A stretch of DNA of 18,292 bases from a virus. Lineage: Duplodnaviria > Heunggongvirae > Uroviricota > Caudoviricetes. The stretch is taken from the IMG/VR virus record IMGVR_UViG_2718218361_000001. One strand, given 5' to 3'. The notes under the pieces were generated by a model. It saw only the letters and a list, made by a program, of their open reading frames with translations. It did no database searches and was not told the DNA's origin. The position numbers and the translations under genes are program-made. Positions 1 to 18,253 of this stretch are shown here, piece after piece (the stretch's first letter is position 1; the number at the start of each line of letters is the position of its first letter).

Positions 1-1374
1 ATGTTAGTTAGTAAAAACAACGAATTTAACACTAGCTCATTTATAGATAGTGGAAATTGTAATGAAAGAAAATCTTCTGAATCCATGGAGCTACTAGCTT
101 ATAGTATTATAAATTTAATTTGTAAGAAAGCTGCCTCAGGGACGTATCGCGGTGCTCTTGAAACTTTACAAAAAATGATGTCTGAATGTATATATCATGA
201 AGGCAACGCCTTTGTCATTATGGGAGTTGGAGAACAATTAAAACGTATTAAATATGAAGTTGGTGAAAATAACTTAAAGGTATTCAACGTACACTTTAAT
301 AATAATCACGAGTTAGTTAGTTCTGGTGAGCCTGACGTAATATGTTTAAGCAAGCAGGTCTGGGAAAATCTTCTCATTAAACTAAAGCTGGAAAACAATG
401 AAAATGTGTTTTCTGAAACTAAAAAATTATCGAATAAAAATAATGACGATCAGTTTTTTGAATGCGCTAAAAGAAATGAACAGAACCTTTTCGATAATAT
501 AAGAAAAAGTGATTTTCATGTTGGTTTACTTAAGCCAAGTAGTACGCGTAGTGTTATTTTAGAAACGCCGCCAAATGTCTGTATGGAATCACGTAATTCA
601 TATGAAAACAAAATAGATGAGATTTCATCTTTGTCAGAGTCAAAGGAACACCCCATAGATATTCAAGAAAAAAAAGATGCGTTTGTGAATGAGTTCAAGG
701 GGGTATTATTTGATAAAAATACAAGGTCTTCAGAGCTTCTGTTTAATTTTTATGAGTGTTGCTATAAGTTTTTACCAAGAGCTCAGCCTCAAGATAAAAT
801 CGATAGCTATAATTCAGCACTGCAAGCTTTTTCCATTTTTTGTTCATCTACGTTGACACATAATAATATAGGCTTTGATTTCAAATTATTTCCTGAAGTC
901 AAGCTGTCTGGAGAACATCTTGAAACGGTATTCAAATACAAAAATGGCGATGATGTCCGGGAGATAGCCAAAATTAACATTACTCTCCAAAAAGAAGAGG
1001 GTGGTTTATATAATTTACGTGGATTGGATTTTAAGGGGTGCTTCTTTTCTGGACAGAACTTCAGTAACTATGATATTCAATATGTGAACTGGGGAACGTC
1101 ATTGTTTGATGTTGATACTCCGTGTATTTTTAATGCGCCTGCTTACAACAAGAGTAATGAAAAATCATTAAAACCTGTGAGCGAAAACGGTTTAAGTGGA
1201 GTATTGACTGATCGTAATAATAAAATAAAACTCATCACGGGCGTGGCACCATTCGATGATATTTTATTTATGGATGATGACTTTGATGATAGTTCCTCTG
1301 AGGATGATCCCGTTGAGAATAGTCCTGTTGTGACTAGTCCCGTTGTATCAAGTTCTAAAAGCAGTTTTCAATGA
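1..1374 (+). CDS. Hypothetical low-GC protein (457 aa ORF), possibly 5'-truncated by the window edge; short pentapeptide-repeat-like stretch and acidic Ser/Asp-rich C-terminal tail
   Basis: Long uninterrupted ORF in an AT-rich segment. Translation contains YNLRG-LDFKG-CFFSG-QNFSN (pentapeptide-repeat-like) and a DDDFDDSSSEDD tail. ATG sits at position 1 so the true start cannot be confirmed. No recognisable catalytic motif. Confidence 0.55.
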   Translation: MLVSKNNEFNTSSFIDSGNCNERKSSESMELLAYSIINLICKKAASGTYRGALETLQKMMSECIYHEGNAFVIMGVGEQLKRIKYEVGENNLKVFNVHFNNNHELVSSGEPDVICLSKQVWENLLIKLKLENNENVFSETKKLSNKNNDDQFFECAKRNEQNLFDNIRKSDFHVGLLKPSSTRSVILETPPNVCMESRNSYENKIDEISSLSESKEHPIDIQEKKDAFVNEFKGVLFDKNTRSSELLFNFYECCYKFLPRAQPQDKIDSYNSALQAFSIFCSSTLTHNNIGFDFKLFPEVKLSGEHLETVFKYKNGDDVREIAKINITLQKEEGGLYNLRGLDFKGCFFSGQNFSNYDIQYVNWGTSLFDVDTPCIFNAPAYNKSNEKSLKPVSENGLSGVLTDRNNKIKLITGVAPFDDILFMDDDFDDSSSEDDPVENSPVVTSPVVSSSKSSFQ

Positions 1375-2285: not shown

Positions 2286-5200
2286 ATGAACAGGACCAGT
2301 CCCCATTATTGTCGCCGCTCAGTACTTTCCTTATTGATATCTGCCTTGATATATGCCCCGCCTGGGATGACGGCCTTCACTCCTGATGTTATTGGTGTGG
2401 TAAACGATGAGACTGTAGATGGCAGCCAAAGAGTAGATGAACGAGGTACAACAAATAACACTCATATTATCAACCATGGCCAGCAGAATGTTCATGGCGG
2501 GGTATCTAATGGAAGTCTTATTGAATCGGGTGGATATCAAGATGTAGGAAGTCATAACAATTTTGTGGGGCAGGCTAATAATACAACCATTAACGGAGGA
2601 AGACAGACAATTCATGACGGGGGCATTTCCACCGGTACGATAATCGACAGTGGCAATCAGGACGTTTATACAGGTGGTATCAGCAATGGAACGACAATTA
2701 AGGGTGGTAATTCACACATAAGTGGGGGGACTGCGAATGGAACCATCATTGATGGTGGAGGGCAGAAAGTAACAACTCAGGGGCATGTTGATGGTACAAC
2801 GATAAATAAGTCCGGTTATCAGGACATCACGCAAGGAAGTATTGCAACGAACACAATCATAAATGGTGGACGACAGTATGTTGAACAGAGCACAGTAGGA
2901 ACAACCACCATTAAAAATGGCGGTGAGCAAAGAGTATATGAAAGCCATGCGCTGGACACGACGATTGAAGGTGGAACTCAGTCTCTGAATAATAAGTCAA
3001 CGGCAAAAATACTCAGATCTATTCTGGTGGTACGCAAATTGTTGATTACACCAGCTCCTCGGATGTTATTGAAGTTTATTCCGGTGGCGTGCTTGATGTT
3101 AGTGGTGGTACGGCAACAAATGTTACCCAGCACGATGGTGCAATTTTAAAAACAAACACTAACGGTACGACGGTGAGCGGTACGAATAGTGAAGGTGCAT
3201 TCTCCATCCACAATCACGTGGCAGACAATGTGTTGCTGGAAAACGGTGGTCATTTAGACATAAACGCATATGGTTCGGCAAACAAGACGATTATTAAAGA
3301 TAAAGGAACAATGTCAGTTTTAACGAATGCTAAAGCTGATGCGACCCGAATAGATAACGGCGGGGTAATGGATGTTACCGGAAACGCGACCAATACCATA
3401 ATCAATGGTGGTACACAGAATATTAATAATCATGGTATTGCCACGGGTACCAATATCAACGGCGGAACGCAAAATATCAAGAGCGGCGGGAAAGCTGACA
3501 CGACAATTATATCCTCCGGGAGCCGGCAGGTTGTTGAGAAAGATGGTACGGCAACTGGCAGCAATATTAGCGCCGGAGGCTCGCTGATTGTCTATACCGG
3601 TGGTATTGCACATGGGGTTAACCAGGAGACGGGCAGTGCTTTAGTTGCCAACACGGGCGCAGGGACTGATATTGAAGGATACAACAAGCTCTCTCACTTC
3701 ACTATTACCGGAGGGGAGGCTAATTATGTTGTGCTGGAAAATACCGGCGAACTGACGGTAGTGGCTAAAACCTCGGCGAAAAATACTACCGTTGATGCTG
3801 GCGGTAAGCTGATTGTCCAGAAGGAGGCTAAAACAGATACCACCAGACTTAATAATGGTGGCGTTCTGGAGGTTCAGGACGGTGGTGAGGCTAAGCATGT
3901 TGAGCAACAATCCGGCGGCGCATTAATTGCTTCCACAACTTCCGGAACCCTTATCGAAGGAACCAACAGTTATGGTGATGCTTTCTACATCAGGAATTCA
4001 GAAGCTAAAAATGTAGTGCTGGAAAACGCTGGCTCATTAACAGTCGTCACTGGTTCCCGGGCAGTTGATACGATTATTAATGCCAACGGCAAAATGGATG
4101 TTTATGGAAAAGATGTTGGCACTGTACTCAATAGTGCTGGCACCCAAACAATATATGCCAGTGCCACTTCTGATAAAGCAAATATCAAAGGTGGCAAGCA
4201 AACGGTATATGGATTAGCCACTGAGGCAAATATCGAAAGTGGTGAACAAATTGTTGATGGTGGGTCAACAGAGAAAACACACATCAATGGTGGCACGCAA
4301 ACCGTTCAGAATTATGGTAAGGCAATCAATACCGATATCGTCTCTGGCCTACAACAAATTATGGCAAACGGGACAGCGGAAGGTTCCATTATTAATGGGT
4401 GTTCACAGGTAGTTAATGAGGGCGGTCTGGCTGAAAACTCGGTGCTTAATGACGGCGGCACACTCGATGTGCGGGAGAAAGGCAGCGCAACGGGGATACA
4501 GCAGAGTAGCCAGGACGCTTTGGTTGCAACCACCAGGGCGACGCGGGTCACAGGAACACGCGCGGATGGCGTCGCGTTCAGCATCGAGCAGGGTGCGGCG
4601 AACAATATCCTGCTGGCAAATGGCGGCGTGTTAACCATGGAGTCAGACACCTCTTCTGACAAAACACAGGTCAATACGGGCGGACGGGAGATCGTCAAAA
4701 CAAAAGCCACTGCGACAGGCACGACGCTCACCGGCGGCGAACAAATCGTCGAGGGGGTGGCGAATGAGACAACGATTAACGACGGCGGAATACAAACAGT
4801 TTCAGCTAACGGAGAGGCAATAAAAACAAAGATCAATGAAGGCGGTACGCTGACAGTTAACGATAATGGCAAAGCGACAGATATCGTCCAGAACAGCGGT
4901 GCCGCTCTCCAGACGAGCACGGCTAACGGTATTGAAATCAGCGGTACTCACCAGTACGGCACTTTTTCCATTTCCGGCAATTTAGCGACCAATATGTTGC
5001 TGGAAAATGGCGGTAATTTATTGGTATTAGCAGGTACCGAAGCTCGCGACTCCACGGTTGGCAGCGGTGGAGCCGCCAACGGCAGTTATCGCAGCAACGG
5101 GCTGGGCGGTCACATTGAAACCGGGATGCGATTTACCGATGGTAACTGGAACCTGACGCCGTATGCATCGTTAACGGGGGTTCACCGCTGATAACCCTGA

Positions 5201-5781: not shown

Positions 5782-5805
5782 GGTATACCTAAGCGTATAC
5801 CAATA
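5782..5805. repeat. Integrase arm-type-like repeats, left end of the satellite
   Basis: GGTATACCTAAGCGTATACCAATA matches CGTATACCTAAACGTATACCAATA at 17757-17780 at 22 of 24 positions. Contains two (G/C)GTATAC units 12 bp apart. Confidence 0.5.
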
Positions 5806-6037: not shown

Positions 6038-8371
6038 TTATTTTATTGTTGGCTCATCGCACTTGGGTAGCCAGTCTGCATTACTCTCTTCTTTTAAGGT
6101 GAGGTTAGTCTGCATTCCCTGATTAGTTCGCCGCTTCTCATAATGTAGCCCGTACTCCTTCAGCATAACTGGTAGCCCTTTGCCAAACATTGTCAGGCTG
6201 AGGGTATTTTTATAGCCATTAGCCTCCATGTATACGAGATAAGCATGGTAAAGGTATGTACGTGGCTGGCGCGGGACAATATTGGCGTTTCCCATAAACA
6301 TGCCGTTGGTGTCGGGTAATGCCTCAAGATAGCCACAAAAATCAAATGCTGGATCAGCATCACGCTTGATGGTGAGAGCCTCATCAGAATTCTGCTGCGA
6401 CTGAAGCAATGTTCTGGCACTCATCGGATCACTGAAACGCTGCATGAGCTGGCGAACAATCACAGCAAGTTCTTGAGCAATTTTATCTTTTAGCTGCGGA
6501 TCGCGTTCTTCCGGTGCTATCTGCTCAGGAAAATGCAGAATAACTCTCCGGCGAGACACACCACCACTGCGATCAGTGAAGCGCATAGGATTATTATTTA
6601 CGGCCAGGATAACCGCCGGAATATGTGTTGAATAAGCATTCTGATATTTGGGGTCCACAGATACTGCATCGCCACCGGTTATAGCCTTAAGCCCGGCGCC
6701 ATCGCCGCTCCACTTCTCCTGATCAGGCAGGCGAATAAGAGAAAAACCGATCAGAGCTGCACGTTCTCGCGGGGACTCCAGAGTTTCAATTGTCGCTGAG
6801 GTGGCGTTATCCTCTCCTGCAAGCATCGTTGCAATTTCAGCAAGGATACTTTTGCCACTTCCGCCAGGGCCAGTCACTTCCAGAAAGAGCTGCCAGTCAT
6901 AGCGGTTCGCCAGCACCATAAACAGCGCTGCGAGAATAATGTCGCGTTTTGCTGGCTTGCGCCCGGCTGCCCTGTCCAGCCAGCGCCAGAATGCCGGGGC
7001 ATGAGTTTCAAGCGTTTCCCCATTTACCGGTGGCGTGAAATCAACTTCACACAGGGTACGCAGCCACTTCTCTTTACAGTGCGGACTAAACAGCCCTGTT
7101 CGCGTATCGAGGACGCCATTACGAAAACCGATCAGATGACGTGCCGGATTTTGCTGCTGCGGAACAATTAACTTTAATGTTTCCACCAGTGAGGCAATCT
7201 TTCCTGAGGAAAACGGTGCACCGAGGCGCTGGAAAAGGGCTGCGACATCTCGGGCAAAATCAGACTGAGAAATCACTTTCCACGCCCCAGACTCATAGCG
7301 GGATAAAAGCTGCCCGTTCGGATCAACCGCCAGCGCATCCCTGTAATGCTCCCGAACCCTCTGAGCTTTTTCGCTGACACTCATCGCTGTGAATTCTGCT
7401 TCACTCATCGTGTCGAAAGGACTGGCGTTATGTGGCCTCAAAGCCTCAAGAATTGCCTTCCGGGTGGATTCCTCTCCGTAATGGGCAAGCGCATCATTCC
7501 AGTCACCAAAAACCGGTGGCAGCACAATGTCACACTGACACGCTTTTGCAGCAGCTTCAGCCCTGTTCTGGCCTGAACCATTCAGATCTCGGTCCGCTGC
7601 AATAATTAGCTGATACCCCGGATACTTGTTATGGGCAACGCTGGCCAGAGAAAGAAAGTTGACCGCCGAAAATGCCACCATGACGGCTTCTCCAGTCAGA
7701 TGATGAATGGTAAGCGCCGTGGCGTAGCCTTCCGTAATCCACATTCTTCTTACTGAACTCCCGCCCCCTTCTATCAGATGATAGGCCTCCTTAACCTGAC
7801 CTCCTTTAAGAAAACACTTGCTACCATTGCTACTGATAAGCTGAATATTCACCAGCTCCCCGTCAGCGTTATAGAGCGGGACGATCAAATCACCGGGGCG
7901 GAACATCACCCCACCGGTTTTATGAGCTGAAGTCAGCTCATGGCAAATATGTTCCGGGAAACCTTTATGTGTAAGATAAGTATTTCCGGCAGATTCGCGC
8001 GAGGCTTGCAGCAGTCGCGCGGCAAGTGCTGCCGCTGCATCTTTCCCGCTATTGGTATCGGCGGTTAACGTCCTGACTTCGGAATTAGCTATAGACAGGC
8101 CATGTGTCATTCCATGTATCCTGTCAGCTGCTTCACTGATATCCACATTCAGTGCCCTGGTGACAAGCGCTAAACCATCCCCGGCTCCGCACTGATTGCA
8201 GAACCATGTTCCACGTCCTTCCTGATCGTCGAAGCGAAAACGATCTTTACCGCCACAGACCGGACAAGGCTGATGGCGATTTTTCAATATATTCACGCCC
8301 AGCGCTGGCAGAATCTGAGCCCAGTGACCGCGGGCAGCCTTCACGGCCTGACTGACTTTCATTCCTGACAT
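6038..8371 (-). CDS. P4 alpha-type primase/helicase (phage/plasmid primase, P4 family), 777 aa
   Basis: ATG at 8371 with GAGGGAGAA 7 nt upstream. N-terminal zinc-binding CPVCGGKDRFRF...CNQCG, a primase-like central region, and Walker A GPGGSGKS in the C-terminal NTPase domain. Length equals P4 alpha as I recall it. The ORF track's upstream in-frame Met lacks an RBS. Confidence 0.9.
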   Translation of the reverse strand: MSGMKVSQAVKAARGHWAQILPALGVNILKNRHQPCPVCGGKDRFRFDDQEGRGTWFCNQCGAGDGLALVTRALNVDISEAADRIHGMTHGLSIANSEVRTLTADTNSGKDAAAALAARLLQASRESAGNTYLTHKGFPEHICHELTSAHKTGGVMFRPGDLIVPLYNADGELVNIQLISSNGSKCFLKGGQVKEAYHLIEGGGSSVRRMWITEGYATALTIHHLTGEAVMVAFSAVNFLSLASVAHNKYPGYQLIIAADRDLNGSGQNRAEAAAKACQCDIVLPPVFGDWNDALAHYGEESTRKAILEALRPHNASPFDTMSEAEFTAMSVSEKAQRVREHYRDALAVDPNGQLLSRYESGAWKVISQSDFARDVAALFQRLGAPFSSGKIASLVETLKLIVPQQQNPARHLIGFRNGVLDTRTGLFSPHCKEKWLRTLCEVDFTPPVNGETLETHAPAFWRWLDRAAGRKPAKRDIILAALFMVLANRYDWQLFLEVTGPGGSGKSILAEIATMLAGEDNATSATIETLESPRERAALIGFSLIRLPDQEKWSGDGAGLKAITGGDAVSVDPKYQNAYSTHIPAVILAVNNNPMRFTDRSGGVSRRRVILHFPEQIAPEERDPQLKDKIAQELAVIVRQLMQRFSDPMSARTLLQSQQNSDEALTIKRDADPAFDFCGYLEALPDTNGMFMGNANIVPRQPRTYLYHAYLVYMEANGYKNTLSLTMFGKGLPVMLKEYGLHYEKRRTNQGMQTNLTLKEESNADWLPKCDEPTIK

Positions 8372-9121: not shown

Positions 9122-9324
9122 AAGGGCAATCTCCAATAAGTAGCGGTTATTGCCACCACCAGAGCTGCAAATCTCATGGGTGATGGCCCGGACGGGGTTT
9201 GCAGTACCGGCCTTATTGGAAACCGGCCAGCCCGAAGGCTGCCCCGCCCGGACCACCATTATCTGACAGGAGCCACGGTGTAAGCACCACAGCCCGAAAA
9301 ATAGGTGTGCCTGAGCAACGACAT

Positions 9325-9346
9325 AAAAAAACACGCTCGACGCGTG
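9325..9346 (-). terminator. Candidate rho-independent terminator between the AlpA-like gene and the small-ORF/primase operon
   Basis: On the minus strand a CACGC-gtcga-GCGTG hairpin (9332-9346) is followed by a U7 run (A7 at 9325-9331 on plus). Stem is only 5 bp. Confidence 0.4.
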
Positions 9347-9474
9347 CTGTGTCGCCAATAAGTTACACGGGCTGCAAATCCCGGCTGCCGATTTTGCGGC
9401 AGCAGAAAAACTATAACTGGAAAGCTTGCCAGGACGCAAGCCACAAAAAAAGAGATGAGACTGCAAAGCCAGAT

Positions 9475-9735: not shown

Positions 9736-10270
9736 CTCGCTACCTCTCTAATATGTTTTCAGTAGTCCGGACAATTCCATCCGGATTCAGGTAGTTCCTT
9801 ATTATGTTCATATAAGCGGCTCGCGCATGCTTTATTTAATTAGAGTGAAATATTGACTTCTCAAAAAATAAAACAGCTAAAAACCGGATAAAACGGACAA
9901 AAACAAATCATTCCCTCATGGAATATAATAAGGAGCTTCAAGAATAAAAAAGTCTATTACACCAAGCAGGATCGCCGCTCAAGTCTGTACCAGACCATAT
10001 CATTCCGGGCGTTACATCATAAGGATGAAAACAGCGCCGGAATAATAAAAGGGCCAAAAAACGTTCATAAAAAACAGTTCATCATATGTATTAATTAAGT
10101 TAATGGCTAAAAAAATTAAATTACCCGCATCCTTCCGAATTTATCCGGATGTGTTTAGTGAGCATCAGACAGATTCATTTTTATGGATATTTTCCTGAAA
10201 TGCAACCGAGTGTAGGGAGGTTAAGTGTTGAATTTTTAAACAGACATAAGACACATTTTATACTGTATAT

Positions 10271-10639: not shown

Positions 10640-11392
10640 ATGACAACTGTTAACCAGATCCCTGATGCAAACATTACACCCTCCCTCCCACCGAAAATTC
10701 GCGAAGCGGTAGAAAAAGTTAAAGCAGCAAAAGCTGTCTGGCAGGAAGAACGGCGAATACAAACTGAAGCCGCTGCAATGACTGAAACTATCCGTAAACG
10801 TCAGGAAGATACAAAAACGGAGACGCAGGCGCTTAATGATGAATGGCGAAACCTGTTTCGTGAGAATCAGGGGAATATGACGCCACGAATGAAAAAACTG
10901 CGGGCAGAAATCGCCCTGGGACGCGAAACACTTGATGAGTTCGAAGATTTGCTTGAAGCTCACGCCGCAGAAAAAGAATTCCTGCCCTGGAAAACTGCGG
11001 ATGCTGCAAACCGCTACATCAGCGAACATAACCGGCTGATTGAAACTCATGCAGAGTGGCTCTGGAATGAGTTTATGAAGGAACACGGCCAGAAACTTAT
11101 TCAGATCCTTGGATTGCTGAAAATGACTCTGGGGCGAAGCGCTTCTTCCGTTATCGGCGTAGTTCATACCGTAAACGACCCCGAAAGTGTGCTGAAGCAA
11201 TTTATCAGCGAGCAACTCACCGCTCCGGCACTGTCCTGTAACGTATCTTCAACGGATGTTATTGCCCTGCCGGGGATTAGCATTTATGCGGACGATAAAG
11301 CCCTACAGGATGCCAGACAATCACCCAGCCCTGCAGCGCGTTCCCGGATGCTTAAACAGCGTGACATGGTTAAAGGGGAAGAGAAGGGATGA
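10640..11392 (+). CDS. Sid/Psu-family protein, candidate capsid size-determination (Sid-like), 250 aa
   Basis: ATG at 10640 with GGAG 5 nt upstream (ORF-track start 10607 is a TTG without RBS). First gene of the late operon as in P4. Shares the NEFMKEHGQKL block with the Psu-like product (ENFMSEHGNAL) and MTPRMKKLRAEIA with the paralog at 12237 (VTPEMKALRAEYL). Stop overlaps the next start (ATGA). Confidence 0.7.
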   Translation: MTTVNQIPDANITPSLPPKIREAVEKVKAAKAVWQEERRIQTEAAAMTETIRKRQEDTKTETQALNDEWRNLFRENQGNMTPRMKKLRAEIALGRETLDEFEDLLEAHAAEKEFLPWKTADAANRYISEHNRLIETHAEWLWNEFMKEHGQKLIQILGLLKMTLGRSASSVIGVVHTVNDPESVLKQFISEQLTAPALSCNVSSTDVIALPGISIYADDKALQDARQSPSPAARSRMLKQRDMVKGEEKG

Positions 11393-11943
11393 ATCCTGGA
11401 AACATTACTAAGGAAGCTCTCAACAACTATCGCGCGGAGATAAAAAGCTGGCTGACACTACGTAATGTGCAAAGTACCAGCCAACTTCGTCTGGCGGCTC
11501 TGCTGGATACTGAAGAAAAACCGGCAGCATATGCCAGCCAGCTTGAGAATCTTCGTGAGCGTCTTGCTCTCCTCGAATGGCAGATTAACTGCGCCGCTAG
11601 GGACGGTCTTTATGCTCACCAGATTGTGCTGGAAAGCTGTGTTACAAGCGCAACTGAAAACTTCATGAGCGAGCATGGTAATGCACTCACTGACGCTCTG
11701 GCTCCTTTTCTTTGCGCACCATACGGGCTTGAGGCGGCAATGAAAATATTACGCACCGCTGTAGTCCGACAAACCGAAATCCGTACTCCTGTAATTTCAG
11801 CAGCATATAAGAGCGTTATCGACGAAACCGGATTAACGGTGGATGCATCAATGCGAGCTGATGCTTCAGCCATTTTCACCCCGGCAAAACATAAAGTTTT
11901 TCTGGCCCGCCTCAACAGGCTTAATGAAAAAGGAGGGTACTGA
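11389..11943 (+). CDS. psu: Psu-like protein (polarity suppression / capsid decoration family), 184 aa
   Basis: ATG at 11389 preceded by a purine-rich stretch. Blocks EHGNALTDALAP and FTPAKHKVFLAR resemble my recollection of P4 Psu (QHGTALAAALAP, FTPAQNMIFSRK). Size close to P4 Psu (190 aa). Confidence 0.75.
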   Translation: MNPGNITKEALNNYRAEIKSWLTLRNVQSTSQLRLAALLDTEEKPAAYASQLENLRERLALLEWQINCAARDGLYAHQIVLESCVTSATENFMSEHGNALTDALAPFLCAPYGLEAAMKILRTAVVRQTEIRTPVISAAYKSVIDETGLTVDASMRADASAIFTPAKHKVFLARLNRLNEKGGY

Positions 11944-11944
11944 T

Positions 11945-12217
11945 ATGGCCCTGAAATGTCCTGAATGTGGCACGGTCGCACACGCCAGAACCAGCGCCTA
12001 TGAAGCTCCATCGGTTAAACGCTCATGGTATCAGTGCCAGAATCTTGAATGCTCCTGCACATTTACTGCCCTGGAAAGTGTGGACACGATAATTATGAAG
12101 CCCCATAAACCAGTGGCGCCTGAACCTGAATCACAGAGCGATTCTCTTGTACGTCAGCCGCATACACTGGGCCGCTACGGTTCAGCCTGTACCCTTAAAG
12201 ACCGTCATGCACAATAA
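11945..12217 (+). CDS. Ogr/Delta-family zinc-finger late transcription activator, 90 aa (single domain)
   Basis: ATG at 11945 with GGAGG 8 nt upstream, 1 nt after the Psu stop. CPECGTVAHARTS...WYQCQNLECSCTFTALESV matches the Ogr/Delta signature (recalled P2 Ogr: CPLCQHAAHARTS...YHQCQNVNCSATFITYESV). Confidence 0.85.
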   Translation: MALKCPECGTVAHARTSAYEAPSVKRSWYQCQNLECSCTFTALESVDTIIMKPHKPVAPEPESQSDSLVRQPHTLGRYGSACTLKDRHAQ

Positions 12218-12236
12218 ATTGGGGAGGAACAAAAAT

Positions 12237-13049
12237 ATGACAGAACAACAATTGACGGAAAACCAGATTCAGGCCGCAACCGGACACGTAGTAACACTCC
12301 TCGCGAGGGCAAAAAAACCGCTTCAGGATGCGGATTGGCTCATGAATTTGCCTGCAAATGAAATAGCCCGCGAGACGGAAAAACTGACAAAAAGCCTTTC
12401 CTCCGACTGGCAGTCCCGAATTATCGACCTTTACCAAAAAATGCAGGCCTGGGTGGAGGCCAGACAGGCCGAAGAAGCAGCCATTGAGAACCTTCGGGCT
12501 CTGCGCCAGCATCAGACCGAAACTGAGCAGGCCAGCAAAGACAATCGGGCGCAGTTCAGGGAACTGCTTAACCAGAGCGGCGGCATCGTAACGCCGGAGA
12601 TGAAAGCTCTCCGGGCTGAGTATCTGGAACAACAGGAAACAGCCACAGAACTCGCCGGGCTGATTACTGAAAAAGAAGATCAGCTGCCGGTACTGGCTCA
12701 AGCGACCACGCGTAAAGCAAACGTCTATATAAACTGCCATCATGGCATCACTGAGGAGCGTATCGATGAGCTTTTACGAGACTTTTTTATTTTCCACGGT
12801 GCCGAATTGAGCGGCCTGCTCAGGATGAAGTACAGACAATTTGAGCGATATAGCTCAGCACATATACCGGGCATTATTGAAGGCACAAATGATGCAGATA
12901 CGCTGTATCGTGAATTTATCCTGAATCTAATGCTGAAGTGGACGAATGAAATATTACCGTTAAGATTCCGGGACGACGTGATGAGCCTGACCGGTTCAGC
13001 TCCGGTATCAGGATCGCATGACGACAGAAAAAAAAGTAAGCTGTTTTGA
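12237..13049 (+). CDS. Second Sid/Psu-family paralog, 270 aa, function unassigned
   Basis: ATG at 12237 with GGGGAGG 9 nt upstream (ORF-track start 12147 lacks an RBS). Coiled-coil-like; shares sequence blocks with the Sid-like gene at 10640. Followed by a strong terminator. Confidence 0.7.
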   Translation: MTEQQLTENQIQAATGHVVTLLARAKKPLQDADWLMNLPANEIARETEKLTKSLSSDWQSRIIDLYQKMQAWVEARQAEEAAIENLRALRQHQTETEQASKDNRAQFRELLNQSGGIVTPEMKALRAEYLEQQETATELAGLITEKEDQLPVLAQATTRKANVYINCHHGITEERIDELLRDFFIFHGAELSGLLRMKYRQFERYSSAHIPGIIEGTNDADTLYREFILNLMLKWTNEILPLRFRDDVMSLTGSAPVSGSHDDRKKSKLF

Positions 13050-13073
13050 CCTGAACAGAAAAGCTCACTTAAG

Positions 13074-13095
13074 CCCGGCCAGTGCCGGGTTTTTT
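13074..13095 (+). terminator. Rho-independent terminator of the late operon
   Basis: CCCGGC-cagt-GCCGGG hairpin (13074-13089) followed by T6 (13090-13095), 25 nt after the stop at 13047-13049. Confidence 0.7.
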
Positions 13096-13236
13096 GATGT
13101 CTATAGCCTGAGTGCATGTCTATACTGCATGAAATCGCATGACTTTATGCACTTGCATTTTTACTTCCCAGACCAGATAAGGCGCGGTTTAGAGCCTATC
13201 ATGCAACTGCATGAAAACCACTCCCTAAAGCGGGCA

Positions 13237-13255
13237 GGCGTGGCGGGGCTACGAG
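13237..13255. other. Candidate cos-like site (P2/186-family cohesive-end-like sequence)
   Basis: GGCGTGGCGGGG matches the first 12 nt of the P2/186-type 19-nt cohesive end as I recall it (GGCG[A/T]GGCGGGGAAAGCA-). The remaining 7 nt diverge. Position between the late operon and the cargo matches where cos sits in P4. Confidence 0.3.
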
Positions 13256-13629
13256 CGCGCGCTTCGAGGTAAAAGGATGCCGAGCATACAACTCATCGAT
13301 AATGCGGTAGGGTAAATAAGGGGGGGGGCTTGCTATTTTGTACGCTGTAAGGAAGCAAAAGGAAGTCAGTGAGCTAGGGTTAAACAACCCAGCGTATGAG
13401 GTTAAAGTCTAAAATTGAGAACAGCCGTATATGGAGTAATAAAAAGGTGAGGTTGAATCTTTGAGAGGCTGTTTATCAAGGCATAAACCTCTATAGGATG
13501 CATGGTTTTGCATGTGTTTAAATGTTACGCCAATTTAGGCCAACGCCTTTAGGGCGTGGCCTATTTCCATCTTTGCAACTCCATCAAATGCGTCTTCATG
13601 ATGAAGATGAGGATTAGGCGGAAATTGAA

Positions 13630-15399
13630 TTAAAGACGCCACAGACTCTCAAGATCGAGCGTGTCACTTTGCGGTGCACTTTCTTCAGAAAGTCTATCGA
13701 TCTGCACAAGAAGCGGAGTATGAAATGCTGTTCCCGAAATTATGCATGCGCCTGGAGGAAGGGTAGGTATAAGTGTTCTGGATGCTGCATCTAATGTACT
13801 TAAGGTGTTTTTAAGAAGGTAAAGGTCGTTTTCATTTACCAAGCGATGTATGAAATAATTATGAAGTTGTGATACGATTGTTGGCGATATATCAAATGGT
13901 CGCTGGCTTGAAATAGTTACAAAATAACCAAACTTCCTACCTTCCTTTATTATCTCCTCAAATAATTCAAGTCGATAATCTTTCCAAGTCTCAGCCTCCC
14001 TCACAGAGCTTTCGGAAAGAATGTTGTGAGCTTCATCTATTATTAAATGAAAACTTTCTTTTTTGTTGTCCGAAGACTTGTGTTCTATGAAGGAACATTT
14101 CGCAATCATCATCGGAATCGTTTTTTTTATGGTTTGATTGCATTCTTTGAGAGAGATTATGGATATTGGTTTATAGCTTTGTTGAGCGCGGTTTATTTCT
14201 ATAACCTTTGCTAGAGATGAGCTCATTGCTATTATTTTGTTTATCAAAGGATATATGTGATCATATTGAACATAGTTTCTGGATACAGAATTTATTAATT
14301 GCAGTGTTGCACGTATAGCAATTTCATCAAATACACTAGTAACATGGAATTGGCTATTGTATGTTGCTTGAGTGTGTTTTAAAACTTCAGCAGTAGTGTC
14401 AAGCCAACCCGAAGGGTGTGTATATTTTTCTTGGTTTGAATGCCAAGTAAAGAGAGAGAGTTCATCTCGTATCTTTTGTTGATCGTTCTCATCGAAATAA
14501 GGCAGTAGACTTTTTAATAAATTAACGGTCTCTTTGTGAGGATTTGTTCCAAACATTATTTCAATTGTTCTTTTTAAATATGTGTTAAGATCGTCATCAT
14601 ACTTTAACTTGCTCTTTATTAAATGTGTAAGAAATGGTTTTTGTGTTTTCTCGGTTGCAGAGAATAAAACTGACAACAGTTCATCATCCCAAAATTCTTT
14701 TTCACCGAAATATATCTTATCACCATCTTTTTTTGTGCTAAGTTTTGTGGAGTGACATAGTTCTGGAAAGGAATTCTCTAATGTCCCATATTCACCATTG
14801 AAATCAATCAATACGAAATTTGACTTATCGATCAATTGTTGTTTGTTTTCAATTCTATTGAAAAGTGATTGATATATTTTTGCTAGAGTATTTGACTTTC
14901 CACTTCCTGTATTTCCAAAAATACCTATATGAGAATTAAAAACACCGTTTATGGGAATGTTTATTGGTAATTCCTCTAGCATGGATTTGCCAATGTTAAT
15001 GAGCGGAGTTTTTGTATTTTTGCTAAAACTATAGATTTCAGATATTTTATCATCCGAAATTAAATAAAGTCTATCATTTATCATTGGGAGATATTTTATT
15101 CCAGAGTAGAATTTACCCTCAAAAAAATACCCGAGAATATTTAGTTCAACGAATCTTTCATATTTTTTCTGCTCAATGTCATCAGTACGAATGTTAAAGT
15201 TCTCAACAATTTCCTCACCTATGATCTTACCTACAATGTCCTGATAACCTTTACGAACTAATACAAATTCATTTATTGATATACCACGCAATATTTTTCC
15301 ATTGTGGAAGTATGTTGATTGGAACAAGTCATGGTTTATTTTTGCTTTGACAGTGGTTCCTTTTACTTGGGTCACTTTACCTATATTCAGTTCGTCCAT
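13630..15399 (-). CDS. HerA-like (FtsK/HerA superfamily, DUF87-type) ATPase, 589 aa; second gene of the cargo pair
   Basis: ATG at 15399 with AGGAGA 9 nt upstream (ORF-track start 15408 is a TTG). Walker A GIFGNTGSGKSNT and Walker B HLIIDEAHN; N-terminal beta-rich region before the ATPase core. About 28-30% GC by hand count. Overlaps the upstream gene by 13 nt. Confidence 0.85.
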   Translation of the reverse strand: MDELNIGKVTQVKGTTVKAKINHDLFQSTYFHNGKILRGISINEFVLVRKGYQDIVGKIIGEEIVENFNIRTDDIEQKKYERFVELNILGYFFEGKFYSGIKYLPMINDRLYLISDDKISEIYSFSKNTKTPLINIGKSMLEELPINIPINGVFNSHIGIFGNTGSGKSNTLAKIYQSLFNRIENKQQLIDKSNFVLIDFNGEYGTLENSFPELCHSTKLSTKKDGDKIYFGEKEFWDDELLSVLFSATEKTQKPFLTHLIKSKLKYDDDLNTYLKRTIEIMFGTNPHKETVNLLKSLLPYFDENDQQKIRDELSLFTWHSNQEKYTHPSGWLDTTAEVLKHTQATYNSQFHVTSVFDEIAIRATLQLINSVSRNYVQYDHIYPLINKIIAMSSSLAKVIEINRAQQSYKPISIISLKECNQTIKKTIPMMIAKCSFIEHKSSDNKKESFHLIIDEAHNILSESSVREAETWKDYRLELFEEIIKEGRKFGYFVTISSQRPFDISPTIVSQLHNYFIHRLVNENDLYLLKNTLSTLDAASRTLIPTLPPGACIISGTAFHTPLLVQIDRLSEESAPQSDTLDLESLWRL

Positions 15400-16502
15400 G
15401 TTACCCAATCTCCTGTTTCTGATTTGAAAATTCTATCAATAAAAGTATCAAAAGAAATTTTATGATCAACTTCTTTAGGATAAATGAAGGTTATTCTGGG
15501 GTCATTTACTGTATTATTTATATCTTGCTTGCTTTGATTGTTGTAGCAAAAAACAAATACTTTTAGTGTTGGATTACTTAAAGATCTTTTTATTATTTCA
15601 AGAATGTGCTCGTCTTGAAATGAAAACCCAAAACAAATTAATACAGTTTGTGGTTTCTCTAATTCATAGCTTAATAATCTTAAGCTCTGATAGTAGTGTT
15701 GCTGAAATACTGTTTCTGAAAACTTTTCTTTGGTCGGATTAACTATCGCGAGTGAGTTATAGTATGATTTGAATTCTTCAAGAGAATTTTGGTCATTAGC
15801 ATTTAAATCCAAGTAATCAGCAAGATCATCGTTAGTTGTATTTAGGGTAATTACTAAATCATCTATGGTTTTATCTGTCTCTAAATTTATTAATTCAGGT
15901 GAAACGCTTGGGTAGTTGATGCTTATTGTTTCATTCTCATCTCTTTTCCATGAGACCGAACCATGCATTTTAATTAAATTGATAGTTGGTAACTCATGTT
16001 TGTACATATCATGAGTTCCTTGATGCCAAGTAGTAATATGAAAATTACTAATGTTTAATCTTCTGTTTTTAAAACCTATAGCACCATCATTGAAATGGAA
16101 TGTTTTCTTAGCTAATGCATTGTCTGCTGCTGTTTCAAAAAAAAGATCATAGTTAGTTGTGAAAATATTGGCTCGTCTTATTTGATTGGAACCTTTTTTT
16201 TCTAATAAAGTAACAAGTTCATCTAGAAAATCTGTATAGCTATTTATTGTTGAGGTGTATTTTTTGTTTTCTACACTTGGCTCAATGCAAAATGTTTTTC
16301 TAATGATTTTATTGAAATAAGAACATAAGATAAAATCCTTAACATCGATACAATCTTTATGCGTTAATAATGTCTCATAAGTGGTGTTTTCAGCAAGCCA
16401 CAGCGTTGGTATATACGATGCTGAAGCTCCTGAGCCAAATAGAAAGTTAATATTTTTATCATAAATATTTGATGCTTTGCATGGGAATTCTCTCGTGCTC
16501 AT
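15387..16502 (-). CDS. SIR2-like (sirtuin-fold, predicted NADase) protein, 371 aa; first gene of the cargo pair
   Basis: ATG at 16502 with AAGGA 8 nt upstream, only 10 bp after the integrase stop. Motifs FLFGSGASAS (glycine-rich loop), TTNYD and MHGS (His-Gly) are typical of SIR2-family domains. AT-rich like its partner. Confidence 0.85.
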   Translation of the reverse strand: MSTREFPCKASNIYDKNINFLFGSGASASYIPTLWLAENTTYETLLTHKDCIDVKDFILCSYFNKIIRKTFCIEPSVENKKYTSTINSYTDFLDELVTLLEKKGSNQIRRANIFTTNYDLFFETAADNALAKKTFHFNDGAIGFKNRRLNISNFHITTWHQGTHDMYKHELPTINLIKMHGSVSWKRDENETISINYPSVSPELINLETDKTIDDLVITLNTTNDDLADYLDLNANDQNSLEEFKSYYNSLAIVNPTKEKFSETVFQQHYYQSLRLLSYELEKPQTVLICFGFSFQDEHILEIIKRSLSNPTLKVFVFCYNNQSKQDINNTVNDPRITFIYPKEVDHKISFDTFIDRIFKSETGDWVTWTN

Positions 16503-16512
16503 TTTTATATCC

Positions 16513-17706
16513 TTACTTGCTATTCACTATGAAATTGCCCCACCAATTCATAAGGCCCTTTCTTTTTTCAAGGTAAGTGGAACGATTGTATGCTCTGCGA
16601 ACCTCATTCTTCTCAATGTGAGCAAGCGCTGCTTCAATCACATCTGAATTTAAACCAGCTTCATTCATTGCTGTACTCGCTATAGAGCGTAAACCATGTG
16701 CAACTAATTTACCCCCATATCCAATCCGTTTTAAAGCAGCATTTGCCGTCTGGCTATTCATTGGTTGCTTTGGGTCATTCCGACTCGGAAAAACATGTTC
16801 ACGATGCGCACTGATAGGCTTCATAACATCAAGAATCTCTAATGCCTGAAGAGATAGTGGAACTATGTGCTCGCGCTTAGCCTTCATACGTTCGGCTGGA
16901 ATGGTCCAGAGCTTTGCTTCGAGATCGATCTCTGCCCACCGAGTACCAGATGCTTCAGAAGGACGCACAAGGGTCAGAAGCTGCCATTCAATGAGACAGC
17001 GAGTCGTAACAGATAGATTTGACATTACTAGAGAACGCATCAGCTTTGGTAATTCTTCTGGCCGAAGCGTCGGCATATTTTGTTTTTTTGGCTTTTCAAA
17101 GGCCATTCCAACACCTGATGCTGGGTTTGCATCAATCAGACCAGTGTTTACGGCATAAATCATTATCTCGTTAATACGCTGCACCAGTCGACGTACCGTC
17201 TCAAGCGCTCCACGAGCTTTTATTGGCTCAAGGGCTTCAACCAATGTTCGTGCTTTGATTTGCTGAACAGGGATTTCACCGATTGCAGGAAATACGTCTT
17301 TCTCCAGTGAGCGCCAAATGTCTTTTGCGTAGTCAGGGGTAACGCTTTTGCTTTTTAGCTTGAACCAGTTAGCGGCGACCGTTGAAAAAATACTTTCCAG
17401 AGCGATTTGCTGCTCTTCCTCTGCGGCTTCGGCTTGAATTTGTGGGTCGATTTTGTTGGCTAGTAAAGCAAGGTAATCCGCTCTTAGACTTCGAGCATCA
17501 GCAAGTGAAAGGGAGGGGAAGGCTCCGAGCCCCATCATGGTCCGCTGCTTTGTTGCCGGACGTAGATAGCGAAAGCGCCATAGTTTCTTGCCGCTGGTTT
17601 TCACTAGCAGGAAAAGTCCATCGCCATCATGCAGCGTTAGATCCTTATCGATTGCTTTTGCGCGCAGAACTTCGGTGTTGGTCAGGGGGCGTGTTGTCCG
17701 TGCCAC
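16513..17706 (-). CDS. int: P4-type tyrosine integrase (IntA-like), 397 aa
   Basis: GTG start at 17706 with AAGGAG 8 nt upstream. N-terminus MARTTRPLT...DGDGLFLLV and C-terminal HGLRSIAST...VRRAYNRSTY (H-x-x-R and catalytic Tyr) resemble my recollection of CP4-57 IntA. Lies next to the ssrA 3' end in the same orientation. Confidence 0.92.
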   Translation of the reverse strand: MARTTRPLTNTEVLRAKAIDKDLTLHDGDGLFLLVKTSGKKLWRFRYLRPATKQRTMMGLGAFPSLSLADARSLRADYLALLANKIDPQIQAEAAEEEQQIALESIFSTVAANWFKLKSKSVTPDYAKDIWRSLEKDVFPAIGEIPVQQIKARTLVEALEPIKARGALETVRRLVQRINEIMIYAVNTGLIDANPASGVGMAFEKPKKQNMPTLRPEELPKLMRSLVMSNLSVTTRCLIEWQLLTLVRPSEASGTRWAEIDLEAKLWTIPAERMKAKREHIVPLSLQALEILDVMKPISAHREHVFPSRNDPKQPMNSQTANAALKRIGYGGKLVAHGLRSIASTAMNEAGLNSDVIEAALAHIEKNEVRRAYNRSTYLEKRKGLMNWWGNFIVNSK

Positions 17707-17728
17707 TGTGGCCGCTCCTTCATGAGTT

Positions 17729-17775
17729 GGTATACGCTTTTAGGTATACATCCTACCGTATACCTAAACGTATAC
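17729..17775. repeat. Integrase arm-type-like repeat cluster between int and ssrA
   Basis: Four (G/C)GTATAC units starting at 17729, 17743, 17757 and 17769 (spacing 14, 14, 12 bp). The last two are duplicated at 5782-5805. Confidence 0.5.
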
Positions 17776-17890
17776 CAATAATCACAGGATTTAGCCGGAT
17801 ATTGTCGGACAACGACAGACACAAAAAAGCCCGCAGGGCTTATGCCGTGCGGGCTTTCTGTACTTCACCGGACGAATCCGGATCATTATT

Positions 17891-18253
17891 TGGTGGAGCT
17901 GGCGGGAGTTGAACCCGCGTCCGAAATTCCTACATCCTCGGTACTACATGCTTAGTCAGTCTTTACATTCGCTTGCCAGCTGCGGACGGACACGCCACTA
18001 ACAAACTAGCCTGATTAAGTTTTAACGCTTCAACCCCAGGCAGGGCTTCCACGCGATCTCTTTTGGGTTTGACCTCTCTTGATCCCCGTCCTAAGAGCGG
18101 AGGCTAGGGAGAGAGGGCTCTAAGCAGGTTATTAAGCTGCTAAAGCGTAGTTTTCGTCGTTTGCGACTATTTTTTGCGGCTTTTTACGAGGCCAACCGCC
18201 CCTCGGCATGCACCTTGGGTTTCGCAAATCCCGTCGAATCCAGAATCAGCCCC
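17891..18253 (-). ncRNA. ssrA: tmRNA (SsrA), 363 nt
   Basis: Reverse complement begins GGGGCTGATTCTGGATTCGACGGG and ends GGTTCAACTCCCGCCAGCTCCACCA, matching E. coli ssrA as I recall it. Contains GCAAACGACGAAAACTACGCTTTAGCAGCTTAA, which encodes the ANDENYALAA tag peptide. Confidence 0.95.

Follow-up and report, generated by a model that had tools for sequence, protein, structure and literature searches.

A SIR2-HerA gene pair behind the integrase of a P4-like satellite in Escherichia coli, a probable anti-phage defence cargo

The stretch of DNA studied here (the window: 18,292 nucleotides (nt) of IMG/VR record IMGVR_UViG_2718218361_000001, ascribed to the Caudoviricetes) matches the chromosome of Escherichia coli S21 (NZ_CP010230), and two further strains, at 100% identity; its position 1 corresponds to position 2502 of the S21 locus. 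It contains a P4-like satellite of ~12 kb integrated beside ssrA, which carries behind its integrase gene two genes, SIR2-like and HerA-like, that probably constitute an anti-phage system (Table 1). Both genes lie on the minus strand and overlap by 13 nt. An earlier reading made from the sequence alone (hereafter the sequence-only reading) had placed the open reading frames (ORFs), their common direction and their overlap correctly, and all the motifs that it quoted are present in the two translations: FLFGSGASAS (residues 20-29), TTNYD (115-119) and MHGS (179-182) in the SIR2-like protein, GIFGNTGSGKSNT (159-171) and HLIIDEAHN (451-459) in the HerA-like protein. A mechanical ORF list opens the HerA gene at TTG 15408, giving 592 amino acids (aa), a start dropped in favor of ATG 15399 on the basis of Shine-Dalgarno spacing and of the call of the Prokaryotic Genome Annotation Pipeline (PGAP). 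AGGAG sits 10 nt 5' of this ATG which, together with the 13-nt overlap, suggests that SIR2 and HerA are probably translationally coupled. Overlapping SIR2 and HerA genes are also annotated at the E. coli BKQWHE, E. coli ES5, Enterobacter, and Aliarcobacter loci. RefSeq names the products only “SIR2 family protein” and “ATP-binding protein”. ORFs of 371 and 589 codons in DNA of 30–34% guanine-plus-cytosine (GC) content, with profile matches reaching E-values of 7e-200, imply that the genes are real and that chance is not an issue. By contrast, the small plus-strand ORFs found within the pair (14047-14214, 14582-14755, and 15566-15742) were taken as chance ORFs.

The pair had also been described as AT-rich relative to its neighborhood. 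This contrast is real, with a GC content of 30.4% for SIR2 and 33.7% for HerA against 47.0% for int, 48.6% for psu, 49.6% for the ORF at 12237-13049, and 51.1% for the primase gene, although the hand counts behind the claim were inexact, since they gave 28–30% for the pair (actually 30–34%) and 50–55% for the flanks (actually 47–51%). The edge of the contrast is exactly the int/SIR2 junction. The GC content is ~30–33% in every enterobacterial variant examined, despite sequence identities of 55–86%. This conservation of low GC across diverged alleles indicates that it is a long-standing property of the cassette and not the trace of a very recent import.

The SIR2-like protein matches the Pfam family SIR2_2 (2.5e-11, 44.3 bits for a cut-off of 24.5) and the PADLOC SIR2 model PDLC04089 (2.7e-66). 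Its Rossmann motif (G23-S24-G25) and its catalytic set (N117, D119, and H180) are invariant among 28 aligned homologs; the alignments used for the two proteins, with 21 homologs in the case of HerA, reach down to 39–46% identity. N117 and H180 align with N226 and H287 of SaSir2, the SIR2 protein of the Staphylococcus aureus system. All the sequence matches of this protein to solved structures are SIR2 subunits of SIR2-HerA complexes (8j4u/8su9, 8yhx, and 8w9l). AlphaFold models of both proteins were built from the homolog alignments, as monomers only. With the SIR2 model (predicted local distance difference test score, pLDDT, of 83), Foldseek ranks 1–38 are occupied only by the SIR2 chains of 8yhx, 8su9, 8uae, 8j4u, 8wld, 8w9l, and 8sxx, and the E-values for SIR2 chains of SIR2-HerA systems range from 1e-13 to 1e-9. 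ThsA (2.6e-5), SPARSA (4.7e-5), DSR2 (4e-3), and classical sirtuins (3e-3 or worse) are weaker matches. An identity as the effector of Thoeris (ThsA), DSR, or SPARSA was therefore rejected, these fold matches being many orders weaker and neither a TIR nor a prokaryotic Argonaute (pAgo) partner accompanying the gene.

The HerA-like protein matches Pfam DUF87, the HerA central domain (9.6e-16, 59 bits for a cut-off of 23.2), and, over residues 3–588, the PADLOC HerA model PDLC04097 (7.3e-200). Both PADLOC models were assigned to the SIR2-HerA system by their names, as the model table carries no description. The Walker A lysine K168, the Walker B residues D455 and E456, and R500 of a conserved SQRP motif are invariant in the 21 aligned homologs. 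The AlphaFold model (pLDDT 74) has beta strands across residues 5–113 followed by an alpha/beta core, and its best Foldseek match is SaHerA (8yhx_A, 2.3e-24), followed by HerA chains of the Paenibacillus (Ps) and E. coli (Ec) SIR2-HerA systems and of DUF4297-HerA. In direct sequence comparison with solved structures, the DUF4297-HerA entries 8xau (9e-31) and 9c1m (3.5e-28) come before the HerA subunits of SIR2-HerA complexes (about 1e-22 to 1e-24), themselves followed by archaeal HerA. An identity as DUF4297-HerA (Gao Her_DUF) can nonetheless be ruled out because the HerA partner is unambiguously SIR2: the partner gene has no DUF4297 match in Pfam or PADLOC and belongs to SIR2_2. The SIR2-type and HerA-type domains that the sequence-only reading had recognized from motifs are thus confirmed by Pfam, PADLOC, and NCBIfam profiles, the motifs are conserved in distant homologs, the N-terminal beta-rich domain suggested for HerA is recovered in the model, and the predicted monomer folds of both proteins match subunits of SIR2-HerA complexes best.

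The two families are large, with 1706 matches for SIR2 and at least 7943 for HerA at E <= 1e-5. In Listeria seeligeri, Aliarcobacter butzleri, and Enterobacter (three loci), a DUF87 gene is immediately preceded by a SIR2_2 gene; the A. butzleri pair adjoins other defence-like genes, and the Enterobacter order is int-SIR2-HerA-psu-delta, beside smpB. HerA homologs with 92% identity occur in Klebsiella. The pair is rare among complete E. coli genomes, of which 16 out of 5426 match it, four of them covering at least 80% of the query. In both E. coli relatives inspected, BKQWHE and ES5, it follows the integrase gene of a P4-like element located at the ssrA site, the ES5 proteins being 75% (SIR2) and 77% (HerA) identical to those of the window. 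The tight int-SIR2-HerA arrangement is kept across alleles of 55–86% identity.

Table 1 Features of the SIR2-HerA pair and of the P4-like satellite that carries it (positions in the window).
Feature	Position	Strand	Basis or remark
SIR2-like gene, 371 aa	15387-16502	minus	ORF, ATG start
HerA-like gene, 589 aa	13630-15399	minus	ORF, ATG start
SIR2 stop/HerA start overlap, ATGGACGAACTGA, 13 nt	15387-15399	minus	Sequence
Spacer from int stop to SIR2 ATG, 10 nt, with AAGGA	16503-16512	minus	Sequence; too short for a promoter of its own
P4-type tyrosine integrase gene, int	16513-17706	minus	Pfam Arm-DNA-bind_3, Phage_int_M, Phage_integrase; NZ_CP010230 annotation
Alpha-type primase-helicase gene	6038-8371	minus	PGAP; Pfam Zn_Ribbon_Prim/Toprim/D5_N
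C4/CI antisense RNA, RF01695	9176-9263	minus	Rfam, 86 bits
Late operon, convergent with the pair	10640-13049	plus	PGAP, Pfam
Psu-like gene in Sid position, 250 aa	10640-11392	plus	Pfam Psu 3.5e-8
psu	11389-11943	plus	Pfam Psu 5e-33
delta	11945-12217	plus	Pfam Ogr_Delta 2e-16
Extra Psu/Sid-like paralog, 270 aa	12237-13049	plus	Between delta and cos
Candidate cos-like site, variant GGCGTGGCGGGGCTACGAG of canonical P2/P4 GGCGAGGCGGGGAAAGCAC	13238-13256	plus	Sequence context
Non-coding filler, ~330 nt, allele-specific	13295-13622		Homology ends on both sides
Candidate far-end att repeat, 23 nt	5783-5805	plus	Direct repeat
Candidate int-proximal att repeat, 23 nt	17758-17780	plus	Between int and the ssrA 3' end
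tmRNA (ssrA)	17891-18253	minus	

The carrier is a P4-like satellite, as had been claimed, judging from its alpha-type primase, Icd-like gene, C4/CI RNA, Psu, Delta, and int beside ssrA; the position of the pair, read as a variable cargo slot, is likewise the documented psu-int hotspot (PMC9122126). PGAP annotates DUF5375, Icd-like, and helix-turn-helix genes in the element, and the immunity region (9176-9416, minus strand) is intact at the RNA level, with isrK at 73 bits and the c4-a1b1 target at 49 bits. The candidate att repeats share 22 of their 23 bases and are spaced by 11,975 nt, near the size of the P4 genome. The repeat next to int lies ~110 nt past the tmRNA 3' end (17891), outside ssrA, and a terminator-like hairpin (17841-17827, minus strand) is found between the two. 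The order of the late operon (Psu-like, psu, delta, and an extra gene) is atypical for a P4-like element, the BKQWHE and ES5 satellites having sid-delta-psu or hypothetical-delta-psu without a fourth gene. The product of the extra gene has no Pfam match but is 30% identical to the protein in Sid position (E 1e-16). This satellite backbone occurs in at least 8 of the 5426 E. coli genomes. Outside the satellite, the window includes an AT-rich (34% GC) ypjC-like gene with DUF5507 and DUF5508 (1-1374, plus strand) and, at ~2286-5074, a frameshifted ypjA/EhaD autotransporter gene annotated as a pseudogene in S21, which belongs to the flanking island and is unrelated to the pair.

On the minus strand, int (17706 to 16513) is followed by the 10-nt spacer, SIR2, and HerA, and the pair converges on the plus-strand late operon. 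The boundaries of the cassette are sharp. Positions 13623-17800 of the window, comprising HerA, SIR2, int, and the att side, form a single block 86% identical to positions 11001-15178 of the BKQWHE locus, whose late operon is otherwise arranged differently. Five other E. coli genomes share the backbone of the window, at 95% identity, as far as about 13263-13294; one of them that we inspected, strain 700462, carries on this same backbone a reverse transcriptase and a hypothetical gene as cargo, with a tRNA-Thr integrase. A block shared across backbones and a different cargo on the same backbone show that this is the variable slot between psu/cos and int, and that int and cargo travelled together here; they point to P4-like satellites exchanging integrase and cargo as one unit. 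The non-coding gap between the gene for the 270-aa protein and the HerA stop measures 580 nt, and the canonical cos 19-mer has no match in the window at up to three mismatches. Exactly this 19-mer occurs at the equivalent position of the ES5 locus (9982-10000), 14 nt away from the HerA stop, and the BKQWHE locus has an intermediate variant (10973-10991); in these two strains, cos and the HerA stop are 14–15 nt apart. The cos-like site of the window diverges from the canonical sequence mostly in its right half, while the 50–70 nt around it are conserved at 82–88%; the variant could reflect another helper terminase specificity, or decay. Positions 13295-13622 are present only in the three genomes identical to the window, are absent from the BKQWHE and ES5 satellites, and may be the remnant of an earlier cargo. 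They include a G9 run at about 13322-13330.

Taken together, these observations lead us to identify the pair, with a probability of roughly 85%, as a SIR2-HerA anti-phage system (Nezha, “Gao SIR2+HerA”) that a P4-like satellite carries as cargo in its psu/cos-int hotspot. With the relevant residues intact and invariant, we have high confidence that its mechanism would be, at the family level, that of the characterized SIR2-HerA systems, the mechanistic details being less certain than this family-level assignment. Homology with the systems of E. coli, Paenibacillus, and S. aureus leads us to infer assembly, NADase activity, trigger, and protection as follows. HerA would assemble into a ring, which is a hexamer in the solved complexes, and a SIR2 ring of two layers would dock on its N-terminal beta-barrels, for a total of ~1 MDa. 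SIR2 would be auto-inhibited when alone and, once in the complex and after phage infection, would hydrolyse nicotinamide adenine dinucleotide (NAD+) through N117 and H180; the loss of NAD+ would starve the phage along with its host cell (abortive infection). Protection would require ATP binding or hydrolysis by HerA via K168 and E456, and the complex may also have a secondary nuclease activity inhibited by ATP. In the characterized SIR2-HerA systems, complex formation and infection release the NADase, and active-site mutants of SIR2 or HerA are unprotected (PMC11472057, PMC11514289, PMC11559045). In the complex of S. aureus, NADase activity is lost with the SaSir2 mutation H287A (PMC11514289). 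The equivalent SIR2 residues in Paenibacillus are N163, D165, and H212, the HerA mutation K173A leads there to loss of protection (PMC11472057), and catalytic-site mutants of either protein lost protection against T7 (PMC11472057).

Several points weigh against this identification. Structural-alignment identity to all solved SIR2-HerA systems is only about 14–20%, and we found no experiment or structure for this clade in the literature searched. NCBIfam scores fall far below the equivalog cut-offs, the best match of SIR2 being NF042942 (SIR2_antiphage, 86.3 for 500 bits) and those of HerA NF042943 and NF042944 (HerA_antiphage, 122.6 for 800 bits and 123.3 for 850 bits); the pair is thus related to the narrowly defined antiphage clades of NCBIfam, but its proteins are not equivalogs of those. 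HerA is also, by sequence, marginally closer to the HerA of DUF4297-HerA than to that of the solved SIR2-HerA systems. Mechanistic details cannot be safely transferred because the solved systems differ in stoichiometry and detected activities: they contain 12 or 14 SIR2 subunits, with or without an active ATPase and with or without a C-terminal SIR2 extension (PMC11472057, PMC11514289). Finally, no consensus-like minus-strand promoter was detected upstream of SIR2 in 16503-17161. Promoter-like sites are, in total, below the expectation from shuffled sequence, and no terminator-like site was found between int and SIR2. Since the gap is of 10 nt and a separate promoter-like site is lacking, the pair is probably co-transcribed with int or transcribed from a weak promoter inside int, which is the simplest reading. 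A spacing of 10–12 nt between int and SIR2 is also found in BKQWHE, ES5, and one Enterobacter locus.

The same two-protein machine might, in principle, confer immunity mainly by DNA degradation or helicase activity, or by ADP-ribosylation of a target, rather than by bulk NAD+ depletion. An ATP-inhibited nuclease activity of SIR2 within the complex has indeed been reported for Paenibacillus, E. coli, and S. aureus (PMC11472057, PMC11514289), and the slight leaning of the HerA sequence towards the nuclease-coupled DUF4297-HerA systems goes in the same direction. We nevertheless consider it rather unlikely, as the NAD-binding motif and the N/D/H set are invariant and, in the characterized systems, defence is lost on point mutation of the NADase site (PMC11559045, PMC11472057). 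It is quite improbable that the pair is effectively silent, either repressed by nucleoid proteins as AT-rich foreign DNA or simply promoterless: both ORFs are full length with every motif residue intact, the conservation of the int-SIR2-HerA layout among the diverged alleles implies selection, and seven systems from the P4 hotspot cloned with their native promoters protected robustly (PMC9122126). These arguments are to be set against the GC content of 30–34%, the 650 nt 5' of SIR2 without a promoter-like site, and the non-canonical cos-like site of the satellite, which speak for silent cargo.

A role in the service of the satellite itself, as an addiction or stabilization module or as a means to manipulate or exclude helper or competing P2-like phages, might be suspected for genes carried next to int that move with it as a block, all the more as hotspot cargo has been framed as part of inter-viral competition (PMC9122126). 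It appears very unlikely, though, given that the family is not confined to satellites and is also found in chromosomal neighborhoods of Listeria and Aliarcobacter, and that characterized relatives protect against unrelated lytic phages (PMC11472057, PMC11559045); moreover, such a role overlaps with defence instead of excluding it. As for a housekeeping function, with HerA as a DNA-repair translocase and SIR2 as a sirtuin-type protein deacetylase, it would find an echo in the weaker NCBIfam and PDB matches to archaeal repair HerA (62–69 bits for NCBIfam equivalog cut-offs of 800–970), but it is effectively refuted by distribution and context: the genes belong to a mobile element and occur in only 16 of the 5426 complete E. 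coli genomes, no NurA, Mre11, or Rad50 neighbor is annotated at the locus, and classical sirtuins are far weaker fold matches than SIR2-HerA subunits.

Identified as a SIR2-HerA system, the pair has close relatives already on record. The P4 psu-int hotspot was defined by Rousset et al. (2022), whose list of known defence systems at this place includes “SIR2 + HerA (Gao et al., 2020)” (PMC9122126); a row “SIR2_2 + DUF87” in their Table S1A gives WP_040073453 and WP_032172094 (PMC9122126). WP_040073453 is the SIR2 protein annotated in E. coli ES5, and the adjoining HerA is now WP_496616532 in RefSeq. We came across no mention by Rousset et al. of an experimental test of a SIR2+HerA pair from the hotspot (PMC9122126); WP_057688227, WP_073508572, CP010230, and the peptide strings were not found in the searched part of their supplements, which is no evidence of absence. 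The ES5 and window pairs share the type of element, the slot, the gene order, the clade, the 10-nt gap between int and SIR2, the overlap, and the ssrA site. However, the window allele is 23–25% diverged and sits on a backbone of X-psu-delta-Y order instead of sid-delta-psu, with ~370 nt more between cos and HerA. A Sir2-HerA module next to Psu has also been noted in silico in P4-like elements of Klebsiella pneumoniae, where DefenseFinder did not recognize it (10.1101/2023.06.22.546067); its likeness to the present pair lies in finding Sir2-HerA together with Psu on an element of this type. According to Hochhauser et al. (2023), the tmRNA locus is a hotspot for defence islands and is used by P4-like satellites. 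The PADLOC database of 2023 holds models matching both proteins end to end, and HerA, SIR2, and Nezha do not occur in the main text of the hotspot preprint 10.64898/2026.02.27.708500.

Among the systems with solved structures, the SaSir2-HerA system of S. aureus (Zhen 2024, PMC11514289; 8yho and 8yhx) gives both proteins their best fold match, with E 1.7e-13 and a template modeling (TM) score of ~0.59 for SIR2 and E 2.3e-24 and TM ~0.6 for HerA. It differs in that identity is 18–20% and that SaSir2 has 428 aa and is a dimer when alone; neither ATPase nor helicase activity was seen for SaHerA in that study (PMC11514289). The E. coli SIR2-HerA system, or Nezha (Gao 2020; Tang 2023; Shen 2023; 8j4u, 8su9, and 8sxx), has the same two-gene composition, its TTNYD and HGS motifs align, and it is among the top fold matches of both proteins. 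By contrast, structural-alignment identity to it is ~16–18%, with phmmer E-values of 2.8e-11 (SIR2) and 1.9e-22 (HerA), and EcSIR2 has 415 aa, against 371 in the window, including a C-terminal extension used in dodecamer assembly (PMC11472057, PMC11514289). The system of Paenibacillus sp. 453MF (Garb 2022; 8w9l, 8wiv, and 8wld) likewise combines SIR2 (381 aa) with HerA and has the same N/D/H residues, but identity is 14–20%, its SIR2 is a tetradecamer, and its HerA has 696 aa with a C-terminal arm domain absent from the 589-aa protein studied here. DUF4297-HerA (8xau, 9c1m, and 8ziq; PMC11291478) provides the best sequence match for HerA among solved structures, whereas its partner is a DUF4297 (Cap4-like) nuclease and not SIR2. 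At the level of sequence, the distance from this clade to the Ec, Ps, and Sa systems is about that between Ec and Ps, which are 23–28% identical to each other (PMC11472057), and the clade is a lineage distinct from the three solved ones.

The compact SIR2 of 371 aa, the HerA leaning towards the DUF4297 type, the missed NCBIfam cut-offs, and the Klebsiella module unseen by DefenseFinder might further suggest a fourth SIR2-HerA lineage, mechanistically distinct and with expression tied to int, although we regard this as unlikely. If true, such a lineage might differ from the Ec, Ps, and Sa systems in stoichiometry or trigger, and could be informative because the solved systems themselves differ in stoichiometry and detected activities, even if the gain would be incremental. 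The finding itself is not new, since the pair is covered by the PADLOC SIR2-HerA models and is already catalogued in P4 hotspots; it amounts to the correct recognition of something already described. Its value is therefore mainly that of a correct annotation, the evidence being in favor of labelling the two genes as a SIR2-HerA defence system that resides, with its P4-like satellite, at the tmRNA hotspot. Beyond this, the locus illustrates the modular exchange between satellite backbones and, if expression were coupled to int, which lies only 10 nt away, the life cycle of the satellite or infection by the helper phage might tune immunity.

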